NCBI RefSeq assembly: GCF_002854065.1
Contig: NZ_CP024147.1
Source of the DNA: Escherichia coli
Lineage (GTDB): Bacteria; Pseudomonadota; Gammaproteobacteria; Enterobacterales; Enterobacteriaceae
Reading direction: 5' to 3' (one strand)
Length of the DNA stretch: 64,000 bases
The notes beneath the pieces are model-generated. The model was given only the letters and a program-made list of their open reading frames with translations, was not told the DNA's origin and made no database searches. This document shows, in pieces, positions 42,995 through 45,080 of the stretch (position 1 is the first letter of the stretch; every line of letters begins with the position of its first letter). Position numbers and translations under genes: made by a program.

Positions 42995-43696
42995 CTACAA
43001 CTTCAGAATTTCTTTCACAAACGGAATGGTCAGCTTACGTTGCGCGGTAATCGACGCACGATCCAACTGATCCAACGTCATAAATAGCGTGCGCATTTCT
43101 CTGTCGAGCCGCTTCAGCAAGAAACGCCCAACATCTTCCGGCAGTTCAAAACCACGCAAACGCGCGCGTAACTGTAGCGCCTGCAACTTATCTTCATCAG
43201 AAAGTGGCTGCAATTTGTAGATCTGCCCCCAGTCGAGTCGCGACGCGAGATCCGGTAATCCCAGATTCAACTGCCGCGGTGGACGATCGCCGGTGATCAA
43301 CAACCGTGTTTTGCCCGATTCCAGAATTCGATTGTAGAGATCGAAAATCGCCATCTCCCACAACTCATCGCCTGCAATACACTCAATGTTGTCGATACAG
43401 ACCAGCGACAAATGCTCCATACCGTCGAGCACTTCCGGAACAAACCAGGTGCGTTTATCCAGCGGGACATAGCCCACCGCATCGCCACGCTGCGACAATT
43501 CCGCGCAAGCCGCGTGCAGCAGATGGCTGCGCCCCGCGCCTTCGCGTGCCCAGAGATAGATGTAACCGCTATGTTCCTGACGCAGCACGTTTTGCAGCGC
43601 GGCCAGTAAAGAGGAGTTATCCCCCGGCCAGAAACTTGCAAAGGTTTCGTCGTCAGGAAGATAAAGTGGCAAAGAGAGCTGTGCCGGTGTGTTCAG
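42995..43696 (-). CDS. hda: DnaA-inactivating (RIDA) protein Hda
   Basis: AAA+ DnaA-like; start set at the CTG codon beginning (L/M)[18 protein letters not shown] (233 aa), as reported for Hda; ORF-track GTG 43741 is the older over-extended annotation. Confidence 0.85.
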
Positions 43697-43790
43697 AGAT
43701 ACCTCAACCAGGATTTCACAAAATCGCGAGAAGTTTACCACAGAATCCCATGATGTTTGAACCGGGCAGCAACACTGCCCGGTCGGTACA

Positions 43791-45080
43791 TTATTTGTCT
43801 GTTATATCCGCGTCTTCTGCGTCCAGCACCACTTCTTCAGGGCGCAGCACACTGATCAGTTTGAAAATCAAACTTAAGCCGATACCGACGATGGTCGCCA
43901 GCGCCATACCTTTCAACTCCGCCGCGCCGATGTTTACCTTCGCGCCACTGACGCCGATGATCAAAATCACGGAAGTCAGGATCAGGTTCTGTGCTTTGTT
44001 GTAATCCACTTTCGATTCGATCAAAACACGAATACCGGAAGCACCGATGACACCATAAAGCAGCAGCGAAACGCCGCCCATTACCGGCAATGGGATCATC
44101 TGGATAGCGGCAGCCAGTTTACCGACGCAGGAAAGCAGGATAGCGAAAATCGCCGCCCCGCCGATAACCCAGGTACTGTAAACACGGGTGATCGCCATCA
44201 CGCCAATGTTTTCTCCGTAAGTGGTATTTGGCGTAGAGCCAAAGAAGCCGGAGATCACGGTCGACAGGCCGTTAGCAAACATCGAACGGTGCAGACCTGG
44301 ATCGCGCAGCAGATCTTTTTTGACGATATTAGCCGTTACTACCAGGTGCCCTACGTGTTCGGCAATAACCACTAACGCCGCTGGCAGAATAGTCAGAATG
44401 GCAAACCACTCGAAGCGCGGCGTATAGAGGGTTGGCAGCGCAAACCAGTGAGCATTAATAATCGGCGTGGTATCGACAATTCCCATTGCGAAAGAGAGCG
44501 CGTACCCCACCAGCACGCCAATTAAAATCGGGATAATTGCCATGAAACCACGGAACAGCACGGAACCTAAAACCGTGACCGCCAGGGTGGTAATAGAGAT
44601 GATGATGGTTTTGGAGTCTGGCGTTTGCCCTTCAGCCGGGAGCAAACCCGCCATACCGGCAGCTACGCCCGCCAGCTCCAGACCGATGACGGCAACGATT
44701 GCGCCCATTGCCGCAGGTGGAAACAGCACGTCCAGCCAGCCGGTCCCCGCTTTCTTCACGATAAAAGAAACAAGGCAGAACAGCACGCCGCACATAATAA
44801 AGCCGCCCAGCGCGACTTCATACCCCAACGGCAACAGTAGCAATACCGGTGAAATAAAGGCAAAGCTGGAACCAAGATAAGCCGGAATTTTCCCTTTACA
44901 GATGAAGAGATACAGCAGCGTTCCAATACCGTTAAATAACAGTACAGTCGCCGGGTTAATATGAAATAAGACGGGCACCAGGACGGTTGCACCAAACATG
45001 GCGAACAAATGTTGCAAACTAAGCGGGATTGTCTGTAAAAGTGGCGGTCTTTCACTCACCCCGATAGCACGGCGCGTCAT
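43791..45080 (-). CDS. uraA: Uracil:H+ symporter UraA
   Basis: Start set at [33 protein letters not shown] (429 aa); NCS2 family. Confidence 0.95.

Follow-up and report, generated by a model that had tools for sequence, protein, structure and literature searches.

The translation start of Escherichia coli hda: a conserved CUG codon downstream of a promoter-like GTG

The window analyzed here is a stretch of 64,000 nucleotides of E. coli DNA that carries hda on its minus strand, and the question raised by this locus is at which codon translation of the gene begins. A mechanical list of open reading frames places the frame at 42995..43741 (minus strand, 248 aa) and opens it at the GTG 43741-43739. 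An in-frame TAA (43804-43802) closes the frame upstream, and this GTG is the first canonical start past that stop. Codon 16 of the same frame is a CTG (43696-43694), and the recognizable N-terminus of Hda follows directly after it. The original prediction had described exactly this arrangement, a GTG-opened frame with the Hda N-terminus running from a CTG 15 codons inside, and its coordinates and offset were reproduced without deviation when the strand was read and translated. We conclude, with a probability of about 0.93, that hda is translated from the CUG codon at 43696-43694 as a protein of 233 aa. The features on which the argument draws are as follows.

42995–43696, minus strand: hda coding sequence as used in translation, 233 codons followed by the TAG stop (42997-42995), encoding the DnaA inactivator Hda
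43694–43696, minus strand: CTG (CUG) initiation codon of hda, assigned on EcoGene 3.0, the class given by tetracycline ribosome profiling (TetRP) and invariance
43701–43705, minus strand: Shine-Dalgarno (SD) sequence GAGGT, 4 nt upstream of the CTG, with an anti-SD duplex of -8.9 kcal/mol
43664–43681, minus strand: codons of the clamp-binding motif QLSLPL, residues 6-11 of the 233-aa Hda
43739–43741, minus strand: GTG opening the mechanical frame, judged a non-functional start; the annotation start of 2006, replaced in 2014
43670–43672, minus strand: TTG (Leu9), first canonical in-frame start downstream of the CTG, which would give a 225-aa form; an implausible start

Identity of hda and evidence for its start

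The assignment of the gene is clear. The product scored 476.6 bits against the Hda equivalog model NCBIfam NF005982 (cut-off 268) and 281.4 bits against TIGR03420 (cut-off 194.8), and Pfam detected the AAA+ DnaA-type ATPase domain PF00308 (Bac_DnaA) together with PF22688 (Hda_lid). Upstream of hda lies uraA, whose TAA stop is at 43793-43791, and downstream lies arsC/yfgD on the opposite strand. The hda region of the window is 99.9-100% identical to that of E. coli genomes; in addition, a 901-nt query around the hda start was found at 95-100% identity in 5425 of the 5426 complete E. coli genomes, with uraA and hda as the features covered. The window contains the locus known from E. coli K-12 (b2496, UniProt HDA_ECOLI), the same gene with the same codon and no difference between the two. 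Chain E of PDB 5X06, which consists of a 20-residue tag followed by MNTPAQ..., is identical to this Hda over residues 1-233, and the activity in RIDA, i.e., stimulation of DnaA-ATP hydrolysis together with the DNA-loaded clamp, is established in the literature for exactly this protein.

A variant of E. coli Hda of 258 aa was also observed, with an internal tandem duplication of approximately 25 residues over box VII and the arginine-finger region. It is represented by two member sequences on a 5-kb contig, and it may be either an assembly artefact or a rare allele.

Initiation of hda at CTG has a published history. EcoGene 3.0 credits it to Su'etsugu et al. (2008, J Biol Chem 283:36118). The original prediction had labeled the CTG start as established knowledge, which is appropriate since the CUG start has been in print since 2008 and is already part of the reference annotation. 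All five RefSeq records that we compared carry a 702-nt coding sequence from the CTG: the MG1655 record (b2496/NP_416991.2) and those of four PGAP-annotated strains (WP_001307333.1) sampled across the identity range. The comparison with curated entries that had been proposed as a check was thus favorable, the MG1655 protein NP_416991.2 being encoded from the same CTG.

Ribosome profiling places the signal at the same codon. Table S3 of the TetRP study lists the 2006 start of hda 45 nt upstream of the 2014 start and assigns the gene to manual class '3. 2014', meaning a signal at the version-3 start; class 'multiple' was not given. The automated screen of that study missed hda, and its class came from manual inspection. 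No Hda N-terminus was present in the TRAINSPOTTER N-terminomics supplements, the one such data set searched.

Structural work is also consistent with the shorter protein. In the structure of Hda with the clamp (Kim 2017), the motif is numbered 6-QLSLPL-11 and is bound to the clamp in the crystal, and the arginine finger is R153. Counting from the CTG gives the same values (QLSLPL at residues 6-11, P-loop residues G55/R56/S57 and arginine finger R153). These published numbers are compatible only with a 233-aa Hda, indicating that the numbering used in the field assumes the CTG start. Translation from the CUG sets QLSLPL at residues 6-11, near the N-terminus. Literature, reference annotation, TetRP, structural numbering and the comparative genomics presented below agree that the CTG at 43694-43696 is the functional start, as had been claimed.

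The codon context favors the CTG as well, and the pattern cannot be attributed to chance. Predicted anti-SD pairing amounts to -8.9 kcal/mol for the CTG, compared with -4.3 kcal/mol for the GTG at 43741 and -1.7 kcal/mol for the TTG at 43672, and no other in-frame NTG or ATH codon in the N-terminal region pairs as well as the CTG at 43696. The predicted fold of the hda leader is no stronger than that of shuffled sequence (z = +1.3). The GAGGT 4 nt upstream positions the ribosome in a leader with little structure, and the initiator tRNA is expected to place Met at the CUG. A further in-frame CTG at 43711 was considered as a start and rejected; it lacks an SD sequence (-3.7 kcal/mol) and is not conserved.

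A start downstream of the CTG, at the TTG of Leu9, would yield an Hda of 225 aa. Forms of this length do occur in public annotations (e.g., K. pneumoniae KPN_02819 at 678 nt), and TTG is a canonical start codon, but initiation there would remove half of the motif that is seen bound to the clamp, and in 37 of 85 species Leu9 is encoded by CTG rather than TTG. With its poor SD pairing in addition, we regard the chance of this start as next to nil.

Conservation of the CUG codon in Enterobacterales

A scan of species-representative genomes yielded 80 loci from Enterobacteriaceae in which the identity of Hda was 92% or higher, to which Yersinia, Proteus, Erwinia and Dickeya were then added. Counts over 81 refer below to Enterobacteriaceae sequences, and counts over 85 to Enterobacterales sequences from five families. 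The codon preceding Asn2 was CTG in every one of the 85 sequences and never AUG, GUG or UUG. GAGGT was likewise present 4 nt 5' of the CTG throughout (85/85), its columns being invariant in alignment A1 and in all 81 Enterobacteriaceae. In 5421 of 5426 complete E. coli genomes, the 30-mer 43711-43682, covering the SD sequence, the CTG and the next four-plus codons, was matched at 99% identity or more.

The degree of conservation is unusual for a leucine codon of this gene. Among 37 conserved Leu positions, a single codon is kept at only one, the CTG start; elsewhere CTG, TTG and CTC interchange. When all degenerate positions with an invariant residue were considered in the 85 sequences, the codon itself was invariant at only two of 138, the CTG start and the CCG of Pro4. 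The latter (43685-43687, minus strand) may point to a constraint on the nucleotides themselves in the initiation region immediately past the start.

Upstream of the SD sequence the picture changes. Indels of 1-6 nt occur between species and break the frame, and many genera have in-frame stops 18-24 nt before the Asn2 codon, i.e., 5-7 codons before the CTG. Reading back from the CTG, 46 of the 81 Enterobacteriaceae meet a stop before any in-frame ATG, GTG or TTG; reading forward, all 81 reach their first canonical start at residue 9 or later, where initiation would cut the clamp motif. An open frame that joins the GTG to the CTG exists in only 12 of the 81, E. coli among them. Conservation of the coding type begins at the CTG, and no conserved canonical start lies upstream of it.

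A close relative provides the most direct view of the upstream codons. In locus L006, labeled E. coli strain SCPM-O-B-8794, Hda is 99% identical, and the leader carries a 1-nt insertion (AAATCCCTGG versus AAATCCTGG). As a result, the promoter-like GTG is out of frame and a stop lies 42 nt upstream of the CTG. L006 is direct evidence that the 15 upstream codons are free of coding constraint even within Escherichia.

These data bear on the reading adopted by the MG1655 annotation of 2006 and by ab initio calls, in which translation truly starts at the GTG at 43741 and Hda has 248 aa. In its favor, no canonical start lies between the in-frame stop and this GTG, and public gene calls contain many Hda entries of 248 aa, among them the Logan/ENA call that represents the 90% cluster of the 248-, 233- and 225-aa sequences. 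Against this, the annotation was moved from the GTG to the CTG and TetRP backs the new site, the frame is intact in only 12 of 81 relatives, with indels and stops in between, SD pairing of the GTG is weak, and L006 retains an almost identical Hda despite a frameshifting insertion within the 15 codons. The GTG also lies within a conserved promoter-like motif, described below. We therefore consider a 248-aa Hda very improbable and retain the CUG as the start of hda.

Outside Enterobacterales, Hda of Shewanella amazonensis (PDB 3BOS) and Caulobacter HdaA share the AAA+ and lid domains with the E. coli protein, and a QL[SP]L-type clamp motif is located within approximately 3-15 residues of their N-termini. 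For eight distant Hda homologues, the starts assigned by gene callers were GTG, ATG, GTG, TTG, ATG, ATG, TTG and GTG, with no CTG among the eight; within this sample, the CTG start is confined to Enterobacterales. The CUG passages in an eLife 2021 paper concern Caulobacter dnaA, not hda.

The second CTG start confirmed in E. coli K-12 is that of yfjD (EcoGene 3.0). The two cases are alike in that the CTG was found from conservation and a ribosome-binding site and that a nearby canonical codon had been misannotated. They differ in that yfjD is an unrelated gene whose wrong start, a TTG, lies downstream at codon 9, whereas that of hda lies 15 codons upstream.

A promoter-like motif around the upstream GTG

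Three features lie upstream of the CTG.

43732–43740, minus strand: TGgTAAACT, resembling an extended -10 element, with TG at 43740-43739 and the hexamer TAAACT at 43737-43732; it overlaps the GTG
43697–43738, minus strand: non-coding leader and probable promoter DNA; together with the GTG at 43739-43741 it makes up the 15 'upstream codons'
43762–43782, minus strand: 8-bp GC-rich hairpin, CCGGGCAG/CTGCCCGG, 8 nt past the uraA stop TAA at 43793-43791

The pattern TGnTA[A/G/C][A/G]CT was present in all 81 Enterobacteriaceae at a variable distance from the CTG (42-48 nt), and the T, G, T, A, C and T of the motif are invariant columns in alignment A1, with Yersinia, Erwinia and Dickeya included. 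The invariant positions are those most important in an extended -10 element, namely TG, -12T, -11A and -7T. From its sequence, TGgTAAACT is a likely promoter of hda, and we infer a transcription start near 43725 and a leader of approximately 29 nt without the GTG. The 45 nt from the GTG of the frame list to the CUG are non-coding and represent the 5' leader and probably hda's own promoter, with the GTG itself contained in the putative -10 element; transcripts from such a promoter would consequently exclude the GTG.

Other searches for a promoter were negative. A consensus promoter scan of 43500-44100 returned none, the sole site assigned to hda in the transcription start site (TSS) data of Kim 2012 is represented by 2 reads and lies 620 nt upstream, inside uraA, and the accessible portion of the Ettwiller 2016 TSS supplements has no entry near the hda locus. 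The phrase 'hda promoter' was absent from the literature searched.

Two further candidates in this region were rejected. TGTGGTAAA matches a DnaA box at 7 of 9 positions, but the T that breaks the match corresponds to the invariant -12 T in the -10-like hexamer. TGTGG-N6-TCTCG was considered as a CRP site; its second half is poor and it is not conserved.

Between uraA and this motif, the hairpin is well supported by comparison among genera: 85% of cells are paired, and at four of the eight pairs changes occur on both sides. The tract after it is just a short TTC(T), unlike that of a textbook intrinsic terminator, and this weak T-run is why the terminator scan passed over the hairpin. The hairpin is probably the 3' end or terminator of uraA, separating uraA from the putative hda promoter. 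The weak T-run also means that some read-through from uraA is possible.

Such read-through is the basis of a dual reading, in which most initiation is at the CUG and a minor 248-aa isoform is made from the GTG on upp-uraA transcripts. In the absence of a strong T-run read-through is plausible, these transcripts would carry the GTG, which in E. coli is in frame and open, and the sole recorded TSS for hda is indeed inside uraA. However, TetRP assigned the hda signal to the 2014 site and not to 'multiple', the SD sequence of the GTG is poor, and the 15-codon extension is not conserved as coding sequence. A minor GTG isoform is highly improbable in our estimate, and initiation at the CUG remains the preferred reading.

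Annotation of hda starts and the dosage of Hda

The original prediction also held that automated annotation would miscall hda by 15 codons. This was true of ab initio callers and of the 2006 MG1655 record (747 nt); it was not true of RefSeq/PGAP, which was correct in all five records. Ab initio callers miss the start in both directions, giving 248 aa as well as 225 aa, and the exact 248-, 233- and 225-aa sequences of E. coli Hda each occur on at least 1000 contigs in public collections.

Additional lengths were found in other genera. In Salmonella and Citrobacter, an ATG in the same frame, 8 codons (24 nt) ahead of the CTG, gives rise to Hda calls of 241 aa; in these loci (L004, L007-L014 and L016) the CTG and GAGGT are intact, and either start or both may be used. 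Calls of 235 aa ('MLLNTPAQ') occur in Yersinia, Erwinia, Hafnia, Dickeya and Proteus, from a GTG within GAGGTG. The Yersinia, Proteus, Erwinia and Dickeya loci examined (L083-L086, approximately locus positions 598-612) all read GAG GTG CTT CTG AAY, in which the CTG and the SD sequence are kept and the annotated start is the in-frame GTG embedded in the SD sequence, two codons upstream of the CTG. Both 233-aa and 235-aa versions of Hda are present at NCBI for Hafnia paralvei, and Hda of Proteus myxofaciens has in addition an ATG at residue 3.

Among the three lengths of E. coli Hda in databases (248, 233 and 225 aa), only 233 aa places the clamp motif correctly near the N-terminus, and the right length matters for homology models, the design of constructs and the numbering of residues. 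The practical value of the finding is annotation quality, and it opens no new question. Given that the CUG start was already known, the additions made here are small: the invariance of the CUG across the order and the location of the false GTG in a promoter-like motif.

A weak start codon as a means of setting the level of a protein has a precedent in infC, which encodes IF3. Its AUU start is conserved, weak and non-canonical and sets the level of a dosage-sensitive factor, a likeness to hda. The difference is that the weak codon of infC acts as the sensor in a demonstrated IF3 feedback loop. We know of no loop of this type, recognized or demonstrated, for hda, and IF3-sensitivity of the hda CUG is speculation.

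Weak starts may extend beyond the order. Among the distant gammaproteobacterial Hda loci (L087-L090 and L094-L097, 45-63% identity), five of eight predicted starts are non-ATG, compared with approximately 18% genome-wide (binomial P ~0.007). As far as these predicted starts go, there is a hint that hda tends to use weak start codons in general.

Initiation at CUG in E. coli reporters is approximately 1-2% of that at AUG, so that synthesis of Hda is probably very low. We infer a dosage rationale, in which the weak CUG would keep Hda scarce. The finding of neither AUG, GUG nor UUG at this position in 85 sequences suggests that weakness of the start is itself under selection. A more specific proposal is that the CUG in particular is kept as a very weak and possibly IF3-sensitive codon that caps Hda dosage and, separately, that the upstream GTG is conserved only as part of an extended -10 element; we offer this tentatively, at slightly below even odds. 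As far as checked, neither CUG-specific selection nor the GTG as a promoter part is stated in the literature examined.

Hda switches off the replication initiator DnaA, and a weak CUG is a plausible way to limit the amount of Hda. The strict conservation of the CUG fits this idea of scarcity, without proving it.
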